A stretch of 64,000 bases of DNA. It comes from Mobula hypostoma (taxonomy: Eukaryota). The notes beneath the pieces are model-generated. The model was not told the origin of the DNA, ran no database searches, and was given only the letters and a program-made list of their open reading frames with translations. Position numbers and translations under genes: made by a program. Below, piece after piece: positions 14,716 through 38,100 of this stretch. The first letter of the stretch is position 1; the number at the start of each line of letters is the position of its first letter. The stretch spans positions 11,656,001 through 11,720,000 of the forward strand of contig NC_086097.1 of NCBI RefSeq assembly GCF_963921235.1. Reading direction: 5' to 3'.

Positions 14716-15580
14716 AAAGGAGAGATGAGAATATGTTTAGGCCTGAAACCTATGTCTGACTTAAATGTTCTGTATTCTAGAAATTTGATCGATTAGCACC
14801 TATGGATAAGAACATTTTACCCTGTGGTAGATCATTTCTCGGTAAAATGGCATCTTCAGTAATGTGCAGGTGCAGCATGTAGTGTTTCCACCCCTCAGCT
14901 TCAGAGACCGCTGTCTGATCCCGACCTTATTGGTTCATTGGCGAGACTGACAGTGAGGGGGGTTGCTTGTTGCAAGGATCAAACCCTCATGCCAAGGCAT
15001 CGCTGTTCCTCCACTCAAGGAAGGAGGTGCCGGAGGTGGTGTGGGGAAGAGCAGAGGCATAGCGGGTGCATTTGAATACGTGCTGGGATGGGGTCTGCCC
15101 CTTCCATCAGTGTTGCCCTCTAGTATTCATTCAGCTGAAGACAAGCCAGATTGCGTTAATTTGCGGATGCACTAGCACATGATGAGGAACAGCTGCGTGC
15201 TTGTTCATTATGAAACATGGATGCAGGTAAACATCCCACGCACCATCAATCTTTAGGCCATGCCTCTCAGGGATTTGGGCTACATTATTTTTCTGTGATT
15301 GTATGTTTTTCTGTTCTTGCAACTACTATATATGCACAATACTGTACATGCTAAGGGTGGTGTGCTGTATACAGGTGGCCTCCGTTTTCCGAACGTTCGC
15401 TTTACGACATCTCGCTGTTATGAAAGGCCTACATTAGTTACCTGCTTTCGCTAACAGAAGGTGTTTTCACTGTTACAAAAAAAAGGCAGCGTGTGCGCGA
15501 ACAGCCCCAGAACTGCATTCTAGTCGGCATTGCTTAAACACATGCTTTATCTCGATTTATTTTGTGCATCCATTAGCAAA

Positions 15581-16141
15581 ATGAGTTCTAAGGTATTGGA
15601 ACAGCCTAAAAGAGCTCGTAAGGGTGTTACACTTTGTGTAAAACTAGACATAATTAAGCATTTCGATTGTGGTGAACGAAGTAAGGACACGGTCCGCGCG
15701 TTGAACTTGCCTGTATCCACCATTCGCACTATTTATACGCAGAGAGAAAGAATTTTGAAAGCTGCTGATGTTAGTGTTGGTTCTGCTCGTTGCAAAGTGG
15801 TCTCTCTTAGTCAGCATCCAATAATGGATAAAATGGAAAGGCTATTGCTTGAGTGGATTGATGGGTGTACAAACTCTGGTGTTCCATTAAGTTTTCTTAT
15901 ACTTAAGGAGAAATCAGTTAGTCTTTTTAATAAGCTGAAACAGAAAGCACTGGACGATGATGATGAAAGTGTTGCAAAAGTGGAATTTAAAGGTAGTCAT
16001 GGGTGGTTTGATCGGTTTCTGAGGCGAGGGCAGCTTTATAGTTTAAGCAGTGGTCCCCAACCTCCAGGCCGTGGACCGATACTTTGCCGCAAAGAATGCA
16101 GGGGTGCAGCGGTAGTTGGAATGCACCCAGCACATCTTTAA
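15581..16141 (+). CDS. Truncated Tigger transposase: CENP-B-like DNA-binding domains (psq-type HTH + Tc5 HTH), no intact catalytic domain
   Basis: RKGVTLCVKLDIIK..., MERLLLEWID, KEKS, FKGSHGWFDRF motifs; C-terminal ~30 aa come from an inserted fragment. Confidence 0.6.
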   Translation: MSSKVLEQPKRARKGVTLCVKLDIIKHFDCGERSKDTVRALNLPVSTIRTIYTQRERILKAADVSVGSARCKVVSLSQHPIMDKMERLLLEWIDGCTNSGVPLSFLILKEKSVSLFNKLKQKALDDDDESVAKVEFKGSHGWFDRFLRRGQLYSLSSGPQPPGRGPILCRKECRGAAVVGMHPAHL

Positions 16142-19770: not shown

Positions 19771-21429
19771 TGTGGGGTGAAACCAGAGAACCCAGAGGAA
19801 ACCCACGCAAACAATATTTTATATACAGCAGTGCAAAATGAACCCCGATCTTATAGCTAGCACTGTGAGAACATTATGCTAACCAGTGCACAACTATGCT
19901 GCCCAGAAAACTACACTGAAATTCATCTCATGCTGACTCACAGGGAAATACACTGGTAATATTATATAGCTTGTAACATAAGGGGAAGGTATGACCTGAA
20001 CAAGGATGGGTTACACCTGAACCCAATGAGAACCAACATCCTTGTGGGTAGGTTTCCTAGATCTGTTGGGGTGGGATTTAACTAAGTTGGCAGGGAGAGG
20101 GTACAAGAGTGTTATACTGAGGATGGGGCGGTTAGTATACAAGTCAATGCAGTGTGTAGTGGGACTCAGAGGAAGGACAGACAGATGATAGGGTAAAATT
20201 GTTGTCAGTGGGGTGAGGGGAAGTGTACCATGGGGGGGAAAAAATCAAAAAGGGTGATGAATACAGGGCTGAAGGTGTTATATTTGAATGCATGCAGTAT
20301 ACAGAATAGGGTAGATGATCTTGTAGCGCAAGTTAAAGATTAACAGGTATGTTGTTTTGGGCATCACTGAGGTGTAGCTGAAAGAATGTCAGGGGGAGCG
20401 TAACATCCAAGGATACACTTTCTATCAAAAGGATAGACTGGTAGGCAGAGAGGGTAGGGTGGCTTTTTGGTAAAAAATGAAATTAAATCCTTAAAAGGAG
20501 GTGACACGTGATCAGAAGATGTTGAATCTTGGTCAGTAGCTAAGAAACTGCAAGGGTACAAAGACCCTGATGGAAGTTACATGCAGGCCCCTGAACAGTA
20601 GGCAGGCTATGGGAAATTAATTTCAATGAAAATAGAAAAGGCATGTAATAATGGGAAATATTATGATAGTCATGGGTGATTTCAATATGCAGGTGGATTG
20701 GGAAAATTTGGTTGGTGCTGAATCCGGAGAGAGAGAAATTGTCGAATGCCTGCATGATGGCTTTTTAGAGCAGGTTGTATTTGAGCGTACTAAGGAAAAG
20801 GCAATTCTGGATTAGGTGTTGTGTAATGAAGCAGATTTAATTAAAGAGCTTAAGATAAAGGAACCCTTGCGAGGCATTTATCTTAATAAGATAGATTCAC
20901 TCTGCAGTTTGAGGGGAGAAAGATAAAGTTAGTCTTATCAGTATTATAGTGGAGTAAGGGGAATTACACAGGCATGAGAAAGTTGCTAGGAAGGGGAAAC
21001 TAGCAGGGATGACAGTAGAACAGCAATATCTGGAGTTTCTGTCAGCAAATCGGAAGAATGATAGAAACATTCCAAAGATGAAAATGTATTCTAAAGGGAG
21101 GATGAGGCAACTGTGGGTGACAAGGGAAGTCAAAGACAGCATAAAAACTAAAGAGAGGGCATAAATAGTGGGAAGTTAGAGGATTGGGAAGCTTTTAAAA
21201 ACCGGAAGGTAACTAAAAACCATAAGTAGAGAAAAGATGAAATATGAAGATAAACTAGCCAAAAAATATCAAAAAGGTTGCCTAAATTTTTTTCCCCCCC
21301 GGAGATACAAAGAGTAAAAGAGGTGAGAGTGGATATTGGACCATTGGAAAATGATGCTGGAGAGGTAGTAATGGGGCGGGGGGGGGGGGGAAGAGACAAA
21401 GAAATGGCTGATAAACTGAAGAGCATTTT

Positions 21430-29089: not shown

Positions 29090-29332
29090 TTGTCATTCTC
29101 GGGATTACTGCCTGTGCCACGCGACAGTGAGAGTAGGAATGCGATGAGGTGGAGGATAAATGCGTGGCTGAGGGATTGGAGCAGGGGGCAGGGATTCAAG
29201 TTTTTGGATCATTGGGACCTCTTTTGGCGCAGGTGTGACCTGTACAAAAAGGACGGGTTACACTTAAATCCTCGGGGGACCAATATCCTGGCAGGGAGAT
29301 TAGTGGGGGCTACTGAGGTGACTTTAAACTAG
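29090..29332 (+). CDS. CR1 ORF1 C-terminus (SGNH esterase-like), 5'-truncated
   Basis: SGLLPVPR...INAWLRDW...F.FLDHW...LYKKDGLHLN.RG..IL (DxxH motif). Confidence 0.8.
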   Translation: MSFSGLLPVPRDSESRNAMRWRINAWLRDWSRGQGFKFLDHWDLFWRRCDLYKKDGLHLNPRGTNILAGRLVGATEVTLN

Positions 29333-29337
29333 AATGG

Positions 29338-32337
29338 TTGGGGGGTGGGAATCAAATTAAAGCGGCTAGGTGTGAGGAGGTTAGTTCACAACAGAGGGAT
29401 GGGAACCAGTGCAGAGAGACAGAGGGGTGTAAAGTGAGCGTAGAAGCAAAAAGTACAAAGGGGAAAAGTAAAAGTGGCAGGCCGACAAATCCAGGGCAAG
29501 CATTAAAAAGGGCTAAGAGAGTTGTAAAAGAGTGCCTGAAGGCTTTATGTGTCAATGCAAGGAGCATTCGTAATAAGGTGGATGAATTGAAAGTGCAGAT
29601 TGTTATTAATGATTATGATATAGTTGGGATCACAGAGACATGGCTCCAGGGTGACCAGGGATGGGAGCTCAACGTTCAGGGATATTCAATATTCAGGAGG
29701 GATAGACACGAAGGAAGGGGAGGTGGGGTGGCGTTGCTGGTTAAAAAAGAGATTAACGCAATAGAAAGGAAGGACATAAGCCGGGAAGATGTGGAATCGA
29801 TATGGGTAGAGCTGCGTAACACTAAGGGGCAGAAGACGCTGGTGGGAGTTGTGTACAGGCCACCTAACAGTAGTAGTGAGGTCGGAGATGGCATTAAACA
29901 GGAAATTAGAAATGTGTGCAATAAAGGAACAGCAGTTATAATGGGTGACTTCAATCTACATGTAGACTGGGTGAACCAAATTGGTAAAGGTGCTGAGGAA
30001 GAGGATTTCTTGGAATGTATGCGGGATGGTTTTTTGAACCAACATGTCGAGGAACCGACTAGAGAGCAGGCTATTCTGGACTGGGTTTTGAGCAATGAGG
30101 AAGGGTTAATTAGCGATCTTGTCGTGAGAGGCCCCTTGGGTAAGAGTGACCATAATATGGTGGAATTCTTCATTAACATGGAGAGTGACGTAGTTAATTC
30201 AGAAACAAAGGTTCTGAACTTAAAGAGGGGTAACTTTGAAGGTATGAGACATGAATTAGCTAAGATAGACTGGCAAATGACACTTCAAGGATTGACGGTG
30301 GATATGCAATGGCAGGCATTTAAAGGTTGCATGGATGAACTACAACAATTGTTCATCCCAGTTTGGCAAAAGAATAAATCAAGGAAGGTAGTGCACCCGT
30401 GGCTGACAAGAGAAATTAGGGATAGTATCAATTCCAAAGAAGTAGCATACAAATTAGCCAGAGAAAGTGGCTCACCTGAGGACTGGGAGAAATTCAGAGT
30501 TCAGCAGAGGAGGACAAAGGGCTTAATTAGGAAGGGGAAAAAAGATTATGAGAGAAAACTGGCAGAGAACATAAAAACGGACTGTAAAAGCTTTTATAGA
30601 TATGTAAAAAGGAAAAGACTGATAAAGACAAATGTAGGTCCCCTGCAAACAGAAACAGGTGAATTGATTATGGGGAGCAAGGACATGGCAGACCAATTGA
30701 ATAATTACTTTGGTTCTGTCTTCACTAAGGAGGACATAAATAATCTTCCAGAAATAGTAAGGGACAGAGGGTCCAGTGAGATGGAGGAACTGAGCGAAAT
30801 ACATGTTAGTAGGGAAGTGGTGTTAGGTAAATTGAAGGGATTGAAGGCAGATAAATCCCCAGGGCCAGATGGTCTGCATCCCAGAGTGCTTAAGGAAGTG
30901 GCCCAAGAAATAGTGGATGCATTAGTGATAATTTTTCAAAACTCGTTAGATTCTGGACTAGTTCCTGAGGATTGGAGGGTGGCTAATGTAACCCCACTTT
31001 TTAAAAAAGGAGGGAGAGAGAAACCGGGGAATTATAGGCCGGTTAGCCTAACGTCGGTGGTGGGGAAACTGCTGGAGTCAGTTATCAAGGATGTGATAAC
31101 AGCACATTTGGAAAGCGGTGAAATGATCGGACAAAGTCAGCATGGATTTGTGAAAGGAAAATCATGTCTGACGAATCTCATAGAATTTTTTGAGGATGTA
31201 ACTAGTAGAGTGGATAGGGGAGAACCAGTGGATGTGGTATATTTGGATTTTCAAAAGGCTTTTGACAAGGTCCCACATAGGAGATTAGTGTGCAAACTTA
31301 AAGCACACGGTATTGGGGGTAAGGTATTGGTGTGGGTGGAGAATTGGTTAGCAGACAGGAAGCAAAGAGTGGGAATAAACGGGACCTTTTCAGAATGGCA
31401 GGCGGTGACTAGTGGGGTACCGCAAGGCTCAGTGCTGGGACCCCAGTTGTTTACAATATATATTAATGACTTGGATGAGGGAATTAAATGCAGCATCTCC
31501 AAGTTTGCGGATGACACGAAGCTGGGCGGCAGTGTTAGCAGTGAGGAGGATGCTAAGAGGATGCAGGGTGACTTGGATAGGTTGGGTGAGTGGGCAAACT
31601 CATGGCAGATGCAATTTAATGTGGATAAATGTGAAGTTATCCACTTTGGTGGCAAAAATAGGAAAACAGATTATTATCTGAATGGTGGCCGATTAGGAAA
31701 AGGGGAGGTGCAACGAGACCTGGGTGTCATTATACACCAGTCATTGAAAGTGGGCATGCAGGTACAGCAGGCGGTGAAAAAGGCGAACGGTATGCTGGCA
31801 TTTATAGCGAGAGGATTCGAGTACAGGAGCAGGGAGGTACTACTGCAGTTGTACAAGGCCTTGGTGAGACCACACCTGGAGTATTGTGTGCAGTTTTGGT
31901 CCCCTAATCTGAGGAAAGACATCTTTGCCATAGAGGGAGTACAAAGAAGGTTCACCAGATTGATTCCTGGGATGGCAGGTCTTTCATATGAAGAAAGACT
32001 GGATGAACTGGGCTTGTACTCGTTGGAATTTAGAAGATTGAGGGGGGATCTGATTGAAACGTATAAGATCCTAAAGGGATTGGACAGGCTAGATGCGGGA
32101 AGATTGTTCCCGATGTTGGGGAGGTCTAGAACGAGGGGTCACAGTTTGAGGATAGAGGGGAAGCCTTTTAGGACCGAGGTTAGGAAAAACTTCTTCACAC
32201 AGAGAGTGGTGAATCTGTGGAATTCTCTGCCACAGCAAACTGTTGAGGCCAGTTCATTAGCTATGTTTAAAAGGAAGTTAGATATGGCCCTTGTGGCTAC
32301 AGGGGTCAGGGGGTATGGAGGGAAGGCTGGGTTCTGA
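29338..32337 (+). CDS. CR1 ORF2: APE endonuclease + reverse transcriptase, intact 999 codons (no AUG start)
   Basis: NARSI, GITETW, YRPP, MGDFN, LDWVL, SDH (EN); PGNYRPVSLTS, QHGF, DFQKAFD, GVPQGSVLGP, FADD, DLGV (RT). Confidence 0.95.
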   Translation: MGGGNQIKAARCEEVSSQQRDGNQCRETEGCKVSVEAKSTKGKSKSGRPTNPGQALKRAKRVVKECLKALCVNARSIRNKVDELKVQIVINDYDIVGITETWLQGDQGWELNVQGYSIFRRDRHEGRGGGVALLVKKEINAIERKDISREDVESIWVELRNTKGQKTLVGVVYRPPNSSSEVGDGIKQEIRNVCNKGTAVIMGDFNLHVDWVNQIGKGAEEEDFLECMRDGFLNQHVEEPTREQAILDWVLSNEEGLISDLVVRGPLGKSDHNMVEFFINMESDVVNSETKVLNLKRGNFEGMRHELAKIDWQMTLQGLTVDMQWQAFKGCMDELQQLFIPVWQKNKSRKVVHPWLTREIRDSINSKEVAYKLARESGSPEDWEKFRVQQRRTKGLIRKGKKDYERKLAENIKTDCKSFYRYVKRKRLIKTNVGPLQTETGELIMGSKDMADQLNNYFGSVFTKEDINNLPEIVRDRGSSEMEELSEIHVSREVVLGKLKGLKADKSPGPDGLHPRVLKEVAQEIVDALVIIFQNSLDSGLVPEDWRVANVTPLFKKGGREKPGNYRPVSLTSVVGKLLESVIKDVITAHLESGEMIGQSQHGFVKGKSCLTNLIEFFEDVTSRVDRGEPVDVVYLDFQKAFDKVPHRRLVCKLKAHGIGGKVLVWVENWLADRKQRVGINGTFSEWQAVTSGVPQGSVLGPQLFTIYINDLDEGIKCSISKFADDTKLGGSVSSEEDAKRMQGDLDRLGEWANSWQMQFNVDKCEVIHFGGKNRKTDYYLNGGRLGKGEVQRDLGVIIHQSLKVGMQVQQAVKKANGMLAFIARGFEYRSREVLLQLYKALVRPHLEYCVQFWSPNLRKDIFAIEGVQRRFTRLIPGMAGLSYEERLDELGLYSLEFRRLRGDLIETYKILKGLDRLDAGRLFPMLGRSRTRGHSLRIEGKPFRTEVRKNFFTQRVVNLWNSLPQQTVEASSLAMFKRKLDMALVATGVRGYGGKAGF

Positions 32338-32719
32338 GTTGGATGATCAGCCATGATCATAATAAATGGCGGTGCAGGCTCGAAGGGCCGAATGGCCTAC
32401 TCCTGCACCTATTTTCTATGTTTCTATGTTTCTATAAAGCATAAAATAAAAACATCATTGTCAAGTCATAACCTCACTGCTGTAGATAGGATCTCGCTGC
32501 GCACAGTATTTGTCTGCTCTGAACAAAGTATGTAATATGTAAATGCTAAATATTTTAGGATCTGTATACTATCAGTATTCAGGTTCTTCCTCTCAAAACA
32601 TTACATACCAGATATGTAACTGGTATTAATATTAAAAATGGTTTGTTGGTAAGGGATTGATTAATAATAAATGGGGAGGTTTTCTGTTATTGTGAACTAG
32701 TAGAGGCACATAACTATCT

Positions 32720-35149: not shown

Positions 35150-38100
35150 CCTTACAAAGGGGATGACTTGAACTTGAATCCGAGGGGGACCAATATTCTT
35201 ATGGGCATGTTTACTAGAGCTGGTGGGAGTGGTTTAAAATAACATGGCAGGGGGATGGGAACCAGTATGATAGAGCTGAGGACGAGCTTGCAGCTTTACA
35301 AGTAGATGTTGGATGCCCAGTAGACGGATATAACATGAGTGTACAGAAGCACAAGCCAATGATTGGGTACAAATGCAGACAAAACAAACAGTTCAAAAGG
35401 GTCAAGAATACAGGACCAAATGTGATGTATTTAAATACATGTAGCATTCAGAATAAAGTGGACAAACTCATGGCGCAATTACAAATTTGTCAGTATGATG
35501 TTGTGGGCTTCACTGAATCACGGCATCAATGGATATACTTTGTATCGAAAGGGCAGGCAGGGAAGGATAGGTGGTGGTGTGGCTCTGTTGGCAAGAGATG
35601 GAATTTCATCTTAGAAAGAGGCGACATAAGGTCAGAGAATGTTGAATCTTTGTGGGTGAAGCTTAGAAACTGCAAGTGTAAAAAACTATTATGGGAATCA
35701 TATAGAGGCCTTCAAATAGTAGTCAAGATATGGGGTTGAGATCGAAGGGAGCTGCAAAGGGCATGTAATAGGTGTAATGACACAATTGTAATGGGGAACT
35801 TCAATATGCAAGGGGATTGGGAAAATCAGGATGGTGTCAGATCACAAGAGATGGAATTTTTTGAATGCCTACAAGATGTTCTTTTTATACCAGCTTGTGC
35901 TTGAGCCTGCTCAGGCTATCTTGAGGCTCTCTTAGATTGGGTGTTGTGTAATAACCCAGATCTTATTAGGGAGCTTAACGTAAAGGAACCCTTAGGAGGC
36001 AGTGATCATAATATGATTGAATTCCTACTGCAATTTGAGAAGGTGGAGCACAAGTCACATGTATCAGTATCATAATGGAATCAAAGGAATTACAGAGGCA
36101 TGAGAGAGGAGCTTGCTCAGGTGGATTGGAAGAGGATACTGGTGGGGATGACGTCAGGGCAGAGATGGCTGAAGTTTCTGGGGATAGCTCACAAGTTGTG
36201 GGATAGACATGTTCCACAGAAGTTCTCAAATGGCAGGGGTAGGAAACCATGGCTGACAAGGGAAGTTAAGGACTGCATAAAAGCCAAGGAAAGGGCATAT
36301 AAAGAAACAAAAATGAGTGGAAAGTTGGATGATTGGGTAGTTTTTTAAAATCAACAAGAGGCAACTAAAAAGTTAAGGGAAATGATGAAATACGAGGGCA
36401 AACCAGCCAAAAATATTAAATATTAAGGATACTAAAAATTTTTTCAGTTACATAAAGAGTAAAAGGAAGGAGAGAATTGATATTGGACCACTGGAAAACG
36501 ATACTGGTTATGTAGTAATGGGAAACAAAGAAATGGCAAGTGAACTTACTAGGTACTTTGCAGAGAAGACACTTGTAGTATGCCAGATGTCCGTAAGTGT
36601 CAGAGGGCAGGAGTGATTGCCATTGCTATTACAACGGAAAAAGTGCCAGGCAAACTCAAAGGTCTAAGGAGGACAACTCACCTGTATCAGATGGACTACA
36701 TCCCAGAGTCCTGAGAGGGGTTGCTGAAGCGATAACGGATGTATTGGTCATGATCTTTTGACAATCACTTGATTCTGGCATGGTCTCAGAGGATTGGAAG
36801 ATTGAAAATGTCACTCCACTCTTGAAGAGAGGAAGGCAAAAGAAAGGAAATTATAGGCCAATTAGCTTAACTTCAGTAGTTGGTAAAGTATTGGAGTCCA
36901 GTATTAAGGACAAGGTTTTGGGGTACTTGGAGACTAATGACAAAGTAAATCCAAGCGAGCATTGTTTTCTAAAGGGAAATCTTGCCTGACGAATCTGTTA
37001 GAGTTCTTCAAGGAAGTAACAAGCAGGGTGGACAAAGGAGAGGCAGTGGATGTCATTGAATTGGATTTTCAGAAGGCATTTGATAAGATGCCACACATGA
37101 GGCTGCTTAACAAGATAAAATCCAATGGCATTACAGGAAAGATACTGACATGGATAGAGGAATAGCTGACAGACAGGAGGCAATGAGTGGGAATAAAGGG
37201 GTCATTTCTGGTTGGCTGCCAGTGACTAGTGGCATTCCTCACAGGTAAGTATTGGGACCGCTACTTTTCACATTGTTTCTCAATTACTTAGACAATGGAA
37301 TTGATGGTTTTGTGGCAAAGTTTGCAGATGATATGAAGATAGCTGGAGGGGTAACTAATGCTGAGGAAACAGTTTAAATGCAGCAGGATTTAGACAAATT
37401 GGATGAATGGGCAAAAAAGTTGCAGGTGGAATACAGTGCTGGAAATATACGATGATGCATTTTGGTAAAAGGAACAATACTGCAGACTATTGTCTTAGTG
37501 GGGAGAAGGTTCAAACATCAGAGGTGTAGAGGGATTTAGGATTAAATGCTGAGGGACTTGTGCAAGACTTGCAGAAGGTTAACTTGCAGGTTGAGTCTGT
37601 GATAAAGGCAGCAAATGCAATATTGGCATTTATTTCAAGGGGATGTTGGCGCTGAAGCAGGGACCCAATCGCAGACCAAGTACTGTGTGCACTGTGATAT
37701 TTACTGAGTAGCAAATCCAGAGGGGCAACAAAGTTGGCATCAAAGTTCAGGTGGAGATCAAAAATTCTGGAGAAATCCAAAAACCAGAATCGGGAAACAG
37801 GCAGAATCGATATTCGGATGGACAGAGTTCAGATACGAATGCTGGAAAGGCTCAGGAAAACTCACTGGCACAATCTGGCAACAAACAGGTGAAAACACAG
37901 GACTGAAATATACTGAGCAATAAACAGAGAGGCAGATGATAGGTGGAGCACAATGAGACACAGGTGGCAGCAATACAGGTAATACTGAGAAACAGGTGAG
38001 AGACAGAGTACTCAGTAATACAGGGGTCGGAGTAGAGCAGGAGTGGGGACAGGAGCACATGGGGCATGAAAACGAACAAGGGCACATGGCAATACCAAAC

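Follow-up and report, generated by a model that had tools for sequence, protein, structure and literature searches.

A survey (PMC13343379) names CR1 as the principal retrotransposon in the majority of vertebrates. The closest described system is the canonical vertebrate esterase CR1 (ORF1 type IVB, CR1 subgroup 7, PMC4120745; survey, PMC13343379), which has the same SGNH esterase in ORF1 and the same APE endonuclease and reverse transcriptase (RT) in ORF2 as the element described here; the survey consensuses also show the same ORF1/ORF2 junction. The words 'frameshift' and 'overlap' are absent from the main text of both papers, and the passages available from them do not address the mode of ORF2 translation. 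Our literature search, which did not reach the older CR1 papers, found no report of CR1 frameshifting.

ORF2 translation is understood for few LINEs, and reviews assign reinitiation to L1 and SART1 (PMC5972666). CR1 resembles these two in its bicistronic LINE RNA, and some shark CR1s share the UAAUG of SART1, but CR1 lacks a conserved start codon and has a conserved heptamer in -1 phase. The stated precedent for -1 frameshifting in non-LTR retrotransposons is that of TRE5-A and TRE3-A of Dictyostelium discoideum, APE-type elements for which a review figure legend (PMC5911963), our only source on this point, gives a -1 frameshift as required for ORF2; they belong to a different clade and have a different ORF1. 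Coronavirus ORF1a/1b and retroviral gag-pol have in common with CR1 the site U_UUA_AAC and a structural protein upstream of a polymerase, and the HIV-1 site U_UUU_UUA is shared with loci L029, L040 and L041 of the survey below. In contrast to these viral signals, the vertebrate-type CR1 junction has no pseudoknot or hairpin, its stop codon directly follows the heptamer, and its host is a LINE. PMC5009743 counts U_UUA_AAC and G_GGA_AAC with the heptamers most prone to shifting. In the arterivirus PRRSV, nsp1beta/PCBP stimulate -2/-1 frameshifting in nsp2 through a C-rich motif (PMC4937337, PMC7618472); CR1 likewise has a short, unstructured, conserved motif 10 nt past the slip site, but this motif is G-rich and its binding protein putative.

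Here we describe the CR1 ORF1/ORF2 junction in a 64-kb window (the whole stretch of DNA analysed) of Mobula hypostoma, which is likely to be a programmed -1 ribosomal frameshift signal giving an esterase-endonuclease-RT fusion.

Classification of the element

The ORF1 fragment matches P0001, a 311-aa protein of M. hypostoma. Pfam PF13472 was found in the fragment with an E-value of 1.7e-6, below the curated cut-off for the fragment, and in P0001, its full-length relative, with 4.7e-16; the solved ZfL2-1 esterase 4C1B matched the ORF1 profile with an E-value of 5.9e-34. With an SGNH/GDSL esterase in ORF1 and an APE endonuclease and RT in ORF2 (Pfam), the element is an esterase-type CR1. In the PMC13343379 supplement, its junction has matches in rows that carry the label LINE/CR1; the RT tree covered the sampled loci only. 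No target-site duplication was accepted for the window CR1, the best candidate being a 7-nt match. Because the copy is 5'-truncated it cannot make a fusion itself, and the frameshift claim therefore concerns the CR1 family.

Features of the junction

The features are summarized in Table 1. ORF1 ends in ACT TTA AAC TAG (29321-32), and its last two codons present the heptamer as T_TTA_AAC in X_XXY_YYZ phase. ORF2 lies in the -1 frame, overlaps ORF1 by 16 nt and continues uninterrupted for 1006 codons; an in-phase heptamer within a -1 overlap is what defines a -1 signal (PMC7618472). The ORF2 frame has a TTG at 29338, and its first ATG, at 29941 (residue 202 if counted from the TTG and 209 if counted from the stop), is located downstream of the endonuclease motifs NARS (29554), ETW (29635) and YRPP (29854). 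A G tract (29336-49) starts 6 nt 3' of the heptamer. On re-reading, the junction agreed with its initial annotation. Across both strands of the window there is a single TTTAAAC with TA[AG] directly after it, and in-phase slippery heptamers occupy 0 of 1003 codon positions inside the window ORF2 and 16 of 3366 within five ORF2s. Since ORF1 ends in the heptamer and ORF2 is set one base back, the ORF2 enzyme is likely made by slipping, which joins the two proteins.

Two older copies had been credited with the same layout. This is borne out at 35233, where TTTAAAA is a valid heptamer in phase, but the linker there contains in-frame Met codons; the copy at 20077 is decayed and one base short.

Table 1. 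Features of the CR1 junction region in the window
Feature	Positions	Strand	Remarks
3' end of CR1 ORF1, last 78 codons (29096-29329) of the SGNH/GDSL esterase plus TAG	29096..29332	+	5'-truncated copy; 97% identity to P0001
TGA bounding the ORF2 frame upstream	29314..29316	+	sets the 16-nt overlap limit
Slippery heptamer T_TTA_AAC	29323..29329	+	no variant at or above 1% in related contigs
ORF1 stop TAG, directly 3' of the heptamer	29330..29332	+	
Out-of-frame ATG (29334) opening an 8-codon ORF past the stop, not in the ORF2 frame	29334..29360	+	
GGGGGnnGGG, +11 to +20 from the heptamer, candidate 3' stimulator	29340..29349	+	same position in related junctions
-1-frame linker from slip site to endonuclease, with GTG 29434	29329..29553	+	open, poorly conserved; 0.5% of its shuffled versions are open
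ORF2 frame, APE endonuclease and reverse transcriptase	29317..32337	+	Pfam PF03372, PF14529, PF00078
3' UTR and short terminal TTCTATGT-type repeats, presumably the CR1 tail	32338..32437	+	from sequence
Second CR1 junction, diverged: TTTAAAA, TAA, G motif with the same spacing	35233..35259	+	
Third CR1 junction, decayed: heptamer one base short, TAA, G motif with two mismatches	20076..20102	+	

Conservation of the proposed slip site

Loci were retrieved by an endonuclease-motif pattern and not by the slip site, which gave 43: 39 from metagenomes, where the matches are estimated at 880, and 4 others. The end of an esterase ORF1 was visible in 10, seven being called by profile match (L002 and L041 weakly), L001 and L015 by eye, and L005 from its last residues alone, a partly circular assignment. 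A canonical heptamer stands at this end in nine of the 10, although counts of loci, as of the tails and junctions below, are not phylogenetically independent: TTTAAAC in L001, L002, L003, L005, L007 and L015, and TTTTTTA in L029, L040 and L041, of which the last two are one family. L019 has TTTACGA instead. The -1 phase and a frame open to the endonuclease were found in 8/10, and the endonucleases of these loci are 36-58% identical to that of the window. The feature occurs across esterase-type CR1 elements, beyond the CR1 lineage for which it was initially proposed. Under the codon usage of the element concerned, the three synonymous codon choices would coincide by chance with a probability of 0.013 in the window, 0.003 in the GC-rich L007 and 0.012-0.31 in the others; shuffled linkers of the other loci remain open in <0.1% to 20% of cases. 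The endonuclease-motif pattern and P0082 had no match in viral contigs, nor did the esterase alignment profile in viral and metagenome contigs.

Closer to the window, no variant over 29320-29339 reached 1% in either of two species, represented by 1561 and 607 contigs, at a required likeness of 80-85% that clipped diverged subfamilies. A search of the PMC13343379 supplement for TTTAAACTA, biased toward the motif, placed 17 of 23 matches at CR1 junctions, from sharks, rays, chimaera, bowfin, coelacanth, frog and crocodilians. When junctions were picked by esterase codons instead, TTTAAACTA was carried by five of the six visible ones, and synonymous spellings were at a junction in none of the 23 matches listed (of 35). 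The four passages listed from the Suh 2014 supplement (PMC4316615) contained no CR1 junctions.

The ORF1 proteins were compared through 150 representatives, in 87 of which the last esterase motif lies 20-45 residues from the end, giving 80 distinct tails. Terminal dipeptides compatible with slipping end 27/30 tails of 26 residues, 18/42 of other lengths and 1/8 L2-like tails (background 4.9%; tail groups defined after data inspection). The residue before terminal LN is of 11 kinds, and a T-ending codon is possible for it in 37 of 38 tails (background for not possible 17%, P 0.007). Terminal GN is preceded by Q in 7/7 tails, and QGN is compatible with a predicted G_GGA_AAC heptamer.

These tails bear on the reading that terminal Leu-Asn is a constraint of the esterase protein, with TTA, AAC and the -1 overlap inherited as ancestral codon bias. 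Asn311 is invariant in esterase alignment A1, and the codon choices are unexceptional where the element is AT-rich (L003 0.13, L029 0.31). Such a constraint is nevertheless hard to reconcile with the location of LN or GN 24-39 residues past the last esterase motif, with the near-absence of LN/GN from L2-like esterases (though the alignment of 4C1B reaches profile position 305 of 311), with the retention by L007 of TTA, about 3% of its Leu codons, and with a preceding residue that varies while its T-ending codon is kept; we consider it very improbable. The AlphaFold model of ORF1p has a pLDDT <50 across residues 275-311 and is uninformative on the terminal LN. In these sequence comparisons, whose counts are not phylogenetically independent, the heptamer is conserved beyond the protein's needs.

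Nucleotide conservation by itself does not identify the reader, and the heptamer might be kept for another nucleic-acid role (as a promoter, or as a signal for splicing, polymerase slippage or RNA binding), with a subgenomic or processed RNA as the template for ORF2 translation. The conserved G tract could bind splicing-type proteins. Against this reading, the AG does not persist across copies, many of which have TAA, and it lacks a preceding pyrimidine tract; related contigs showed no joint recurring at the junction; and codon phase and an open linker would not be required by any such role. We consider this reading very improbable, if marginally less so than the protein constraint.

Proposed mechanism

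Programmed frameshifting at the CR1 junction is favored by nucleotide-level conservation, the swap to T_TTT_TTA in distant relatives, the fixed -1 phase and the open linker. A minority of ribosomes would slip at the heptamer and make an esterase-endonuclease-RT fusion of about 1310 residues, while most would stop after it and release ORF1p, giving a high ratio of ORF1p to ORF2p. If this is true, the CR1 polymerase is a fusion bearing a membrane-binding esterase, ORF2 annotations beginning at a downstream Met are in error, and a virus-like recoding signal, possibly with a stimulator of a new kind, is present in abundant vertebrate transcripts. Among longer proteins, a search for natural in-frame esterase-endonuclease-RT fusions returned 3 matches in 7995 scored; P0176, an L2-type candidate (E 5.5e-4), was too weak for use.

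Start codons upstream of the endonuclease

The initial annotation had combined the fusion with the absence of an upstream ORF2 AUG. None was found in the window, L001, L003, L005, L029 or L041, but an in-frame ATG precedes the endonuclease in 3/8 in-phase loci (5 nt past the stop in L007), which counts in part against the fusion. In related contigs, G>A at 29434 (GTG to in-frame ATG) accounts for 25%, 95%, 1% and 43% of the summed depth in runs X1, X5, X6 and X13, the 25% and 95% coming from two species. A UAAUG stop-start in the ORF2 frame was seen by eye in 3/17 supplement junctions (ScyCan_CR1-1a, SquAca_CR1-17a, SquAca_CR1-6c); this SART1-type overlap is absent from the window and, judging by related contigs, from its close family.

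Such codons would allow a separate ORF2 protein to be made by termination-reinitiation, as in L1 or SART1, starting from an AUG or near-cognate codon close by (TTG 29338, GTG/ATG 29434 or, in some sharks, UAAUG); the heptamer, stop and G tract would then be kept as a signal for termination or ribosome retention and not for slipping. L019, which lacks the heptamer, has the G motif and two adjacent ATGs in the -1 frame, and reinitiation is used by both LINEs whose experiments the reviews describe (PMC5972666). The absence of an AUG cannot separate frameshifting from reinitiation, because L1 ORF2 is expressed independently of its AUG (PMC5009743). However, the position of the start codon is not conserved, the nearest window ATG is out of frame, and reinitiation leaves unexplained the X_XXY_YYZ form, the strict -1 phase, the heptamer swap and the stops lying 3-30 nt beyond the heptamer in L002, L015, L029 and L041. 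We regard reinitiation as unlikely to be the general mode, while some subfamilies may use it in addition to frameshifting.

Candidate downstream stimulator

Downstream of the vertebrate-type slip site, local RNA structure did not exceed that of shuffles (z +0.6, +0.7), no stable stem of an H-type pseudoknot was found 5-9 nt downstream (nested folds only), and an Rfam scan gave nothing near gathering score. The proposed likeness to coronaviruses thus holds for the heptamer and not for the structure. Stimulation by a G-quadruplex had also been suggested; a three-tier pattern is absent from the 91 nt near the slip site, and only a two-tier quadruplex is predicted; the G4Hunter score of 1.48 falls within the highest 1.7% among 25-mers of the element. 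Long-range pairing between the G tract and the 3' UTR (-18.9 kcal/mol) was rejected, since 3/30 shuffles equal it and 14/30 also choose the 3' UTR.

GGGGGnnGGG, a motif defined after data inspection, recurs at the same position without mismatch at 35233 and in L007 and L019, with one mismatch in L005 and with two in the 20077 copy. It has the exact spacing in only 6/17 supplement junctions, whose consensuses are gap-rich. The motif is a candidate protein-bound stimulator in vertebrate-type junctions, where it would act unstructured, 10 nt downstream, perhaps helped by slow termination. Much more speculatively, esterase CR1, the dominant retrotransposons of most vertebrates, might make a Gag-Pol-like fusion via a -1 cassette that travels with the esterase ORF1, its jawed-vertebrate stimulator being this G-rich motif, read by a trans-acting protein with no RNA structure; this would parallel, in a cellular genome, the protein-stimulated frameshifting of arteriviruses and give the host a point at which to control CR1 activity. 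We advance this only tentatively.

Some distant elements may use a hairpin as stimulator instead. Hairpins 6-10 nt downstream gave z-scores of -2.9 (L001), -1.9 (L003), -1.85 (L041), -1.0 (L002) and +0.2 (L029), that is, below -1.8 in three of the five distant esterase elements.

Junction organization

The CR1 copy in the window is 5′-truncated. Its 78 remaining ORF1 codons match a 311-residue protein of Mobula hypostoma at 97% identity, making a ray the probable host, and the question therefore concerns the CR1 family and not this copy. ORF1 encodes an SGNH esterase and ORF2 an endonuclease and reverse transcriptase (RT), as determined by Pfam. When the window sequence was re-read, all coordinates of the initial annotation proved correct, including that of the first ORF2-frame ATG (29941), downstream of the NARS, ETW and YRPP motifs.

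Features of the CR1 junction in the window
Feature	Position	Strand	Basis
ORF1 end, ACT TTA AAC TAG	29321-32	+	sequence
TGA bounding the ORF2 frame upstream	29314-16	+	sequence
ORF2 frame, 1006 codons	to 32337	+	sequence

In-phase slippery heptamers are rare away from the junction (0 of 1003 codon positions inside the window ORF2; 16 of 3366 across five ORF2s). Regarding the two diverged copies said to share the layout, the one at 35233 has a valid heptamer, though its linker contains Met codons, and the one at 20077 is one base short.

The likely explanation is a -1 programmed frameshift. Ribosomes would arrive at TTA AAC with the stop codon next, where the majority would most likely terminate; a fraction would shift by one base in the 5′ direction, decode CTA GAA TGG and traverse the linker into the endonuclease and RT, yielding with the 311-residue ORF1 a product of approximately 1310 residues. 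The sequences themselves show the layout and its conservation; from these we infer the slippage, how often it would occur, what would stimulate it and what would become of the fusion.

Variation within the close family

Contigs from public sequencing runs were aligned to the junction under a likeness threshold that clips diverged subfamilies. No variants of at least 5% were found between 29307 and 29362 in the contigs of four runs, and none of at least 1% over 29320-29339 (1561 and 607 contigs from two species; one contig each from the other two runs). Loss of one base in the G run accounted for 3.1% and 0.2% of depth. TTTAAA was still read in several loose contig ends, after differing upstream codons. 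The proposed lack of an upstream ORF2 AUG is true of the window copy, but part of the family has one: 29434 G>A converts an in-frame GTG to ATG upstream of the endonuclease, at 25%, 95%, 1% and 43% of summed depth (which is not copy number) in runs X1, X5, X6 and X13, respectively.

Distant loci

Loci were collected independently of the slip site, with a degenerate pattern matching the first endonuclease motif; there were 43, of which 39 came from metagenomes (out of an estimated 880 matches there) and four from genome contigs. The esterase ORF1 end was visible in ten, called by profile in seven (two weak matches), by eye in L001 and L015, and by the last residues only in L005; six others are truncated ahead of the junction, and in the remaining 27 ORF1 is of another or an unclassified type. 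Conservation of the heptamer and its phase, which the initial annotation had suggested checking, was observed: a canonical heptamer lies at the esterase ORF1 end in 9/10 loci (TTTAAAC in six and TTTTTTA in three, of which L040 and L041 belong to one family), and in 8/10 the ORF2 frame is in -1 phase and stays open over the 117-315 nt linker leading to the endonuclease. The exceptions are L040, which has decayed, and L019, in which TTTACGA stands in place of a canonical heptamer. Endonuclease identity of the esterase loci to the window was 36-58%. Given each element's own codon usage, the three synonymous choices would arise by chance with a probability of 0.013 in the window, 0.003 in L007 and up to 0.31 in AT-rich L029; shuffled linkers stayed open in <0.1% to 20% of cases. 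A FastTree tree of 20 ORF2s does not unite the esterase loci: L003 is sister to the non-esterase, heptamer-less L042 (support 99), and the putative frameshift cassette thus seems to go with the ORF1 module.

Named vertebrates

Sequences in the supplement of a vertebrate CR1 survey (PMC13343379) are visible to 400 bases, hence most junctions fall outside view. Within the visible part, 17 of 23 matches to TTTAAACTA, judged by eye and query-biased, lie at CR1 junctions, the hosts being sharks, rays, a chimaera, bowfin, a teleost (element labelled Crack), coelacanth, a frog and crocodilians. Where rows were selected by esterase codons instead, TTTAAACTA is carried by five of six visible junctions, the sixth being a low-confidence consensus. 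None of six synonymous spellings occurred at a junction among the 23 matches listed of 35.

Three shark rows of the visible supplement contain UAAUG with the AUG in the ORF2 frame. Expression of ORF2 by termination-reinitiation, in the manner described for SART1 and L1 in sections of two reviews (PMC5972666, PMC5009743), is the main rival; it accounts for these cases, the scattered AUGs and L019, but leaves the form, phase and replacement of the heptamer unexplained. Frameshifting and reinitiation may coexist. The CR1 junction arrangement is real and family-wide, and it is probably functional.

ORF1 protein tails

LN is C-terminal in 14 of 18 close ORF1 homologs, and IN in one. Among 150 representatives at 50% identity, the final esterase motif lay 20-45 residues short of the C-terminus in 87, giving 80 distinct tails. 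With groups defined post hoc and related tails counted as if independent, slip-compatible terminal dipeptides (background 4.9%) occurred in 27/30 tails of 26 residues, 18/42 of other lengths and 1/8 L2-like tails; the residue before terminal LN was of eleven kinds, being unable to end in T in 1/38 (17% expected, P 0.007). Terminal GN was preceded by Gln in 7/7 tails, which is what G_GGA_AAC would need.

Candidate stimulator

Of the suggested G-quadruplex stimulator, the three-tier form is absent near the window junction; neither a stable downstream fold (z +0.6 and +0.7) nor an Rfam match was found there. GGGGGnnGGG at +11..+20 is kept in vertebrate-type junctions, where a fold is absent: L007, L019 and two junctions of the window carry it without mismatch, L005 has one mismatch and the 20077 copy two. 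Within the element, an exact match occurs at 2 of 3340 positions. The motif stands at exact spacing in 6 of 17 rows of the visible PMC13343379 supplement. The layout, a 10-nt spacer ahead of a short unstructured motif, is that of the PCBP/nsp1beta-stimulated signal of PRRSV, as portrayed in parts of PMC4937337 and PMC7618472, and may be a parallel to that protein-stimulated signal. A hairpin lies 6-10 nt downstream in several of the distant esterase elements (z -2.9, -1.9, -1.85, -1.0 and +0.2; -1.5 was reached by 4-16% of control windows).

Literature

Full-text searches, whose coverage did not extend to Repbase Reports or the first CR1 descriptions, listed no report of CR1 frameshifting among their matches; an earlier proposal, e.g., in those sources, is possible. 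The term 'frameshift' was absent from PMC13343379, PMC4120745, PMC3905857, PMC8665684 and PMC10888918 in a term search, and a 2016 frameshifting review (449,034 characters) makes no mention of CR1 within its first 300,000. Among non-LTR elements, a figure legend in PMC5911963 states that TRE5-A and TRE3-A require a -1 frameshift, the same portion of the 2016 review that HeT-A gag requires a frameshift, and a passage of PMC5405496 suggests +1 shifting or readthrough for Paramecium elements.

Related elements and other window features

The sister CR1-like elements L011 (+, ~1645-1651) and L018 (~732-738) have a non-esterase ORF1 in the same frame as ORF2, divided from it by a single TGA followed by CTG, with no ATG ahead of the endonuclease; they are candidates for stop-codon readthrough. 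Five loci with non-esterase or unclassified ORF1 (L008, L023, L027, L033, L030) have -1 overlaps of 79-451 nt and in-phase A_AAA_AAC or A_AAA_AAA 9-135 nt past the ORF2-frame opening, L027, L030 and L033 without ATG ahead of the endonuclease. This is possibly a second frameshift cassette, but the Lys-Asn may be protein-level. L022, a related element, has an in-frame ORF2 ATG two bases past the ORF1 stop, a reinitiation-like layout.

CR1-like endonuclease motifs of L040-L043 lie on contigs of prokaryotic genome assemblies; since L040-L042 align to the window ORF2, they are probably eukaryotic contamination. A single 1211-residue protein record, P0176, has endonuclease and RT in one reading frame with the C-terminal portion of an L2-type esterase, and could be a mutated copy.

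Just 5′ of the CR1 copy, a 24-nt inverted repeat (28315-28338/28959-28982; 88% complementary, 620 nt apart) may form the termini of a small DNA element. A 205-codon open frame (15524-16141, +) resembles the N-terminus of a pogo/Tigger-type transposase.
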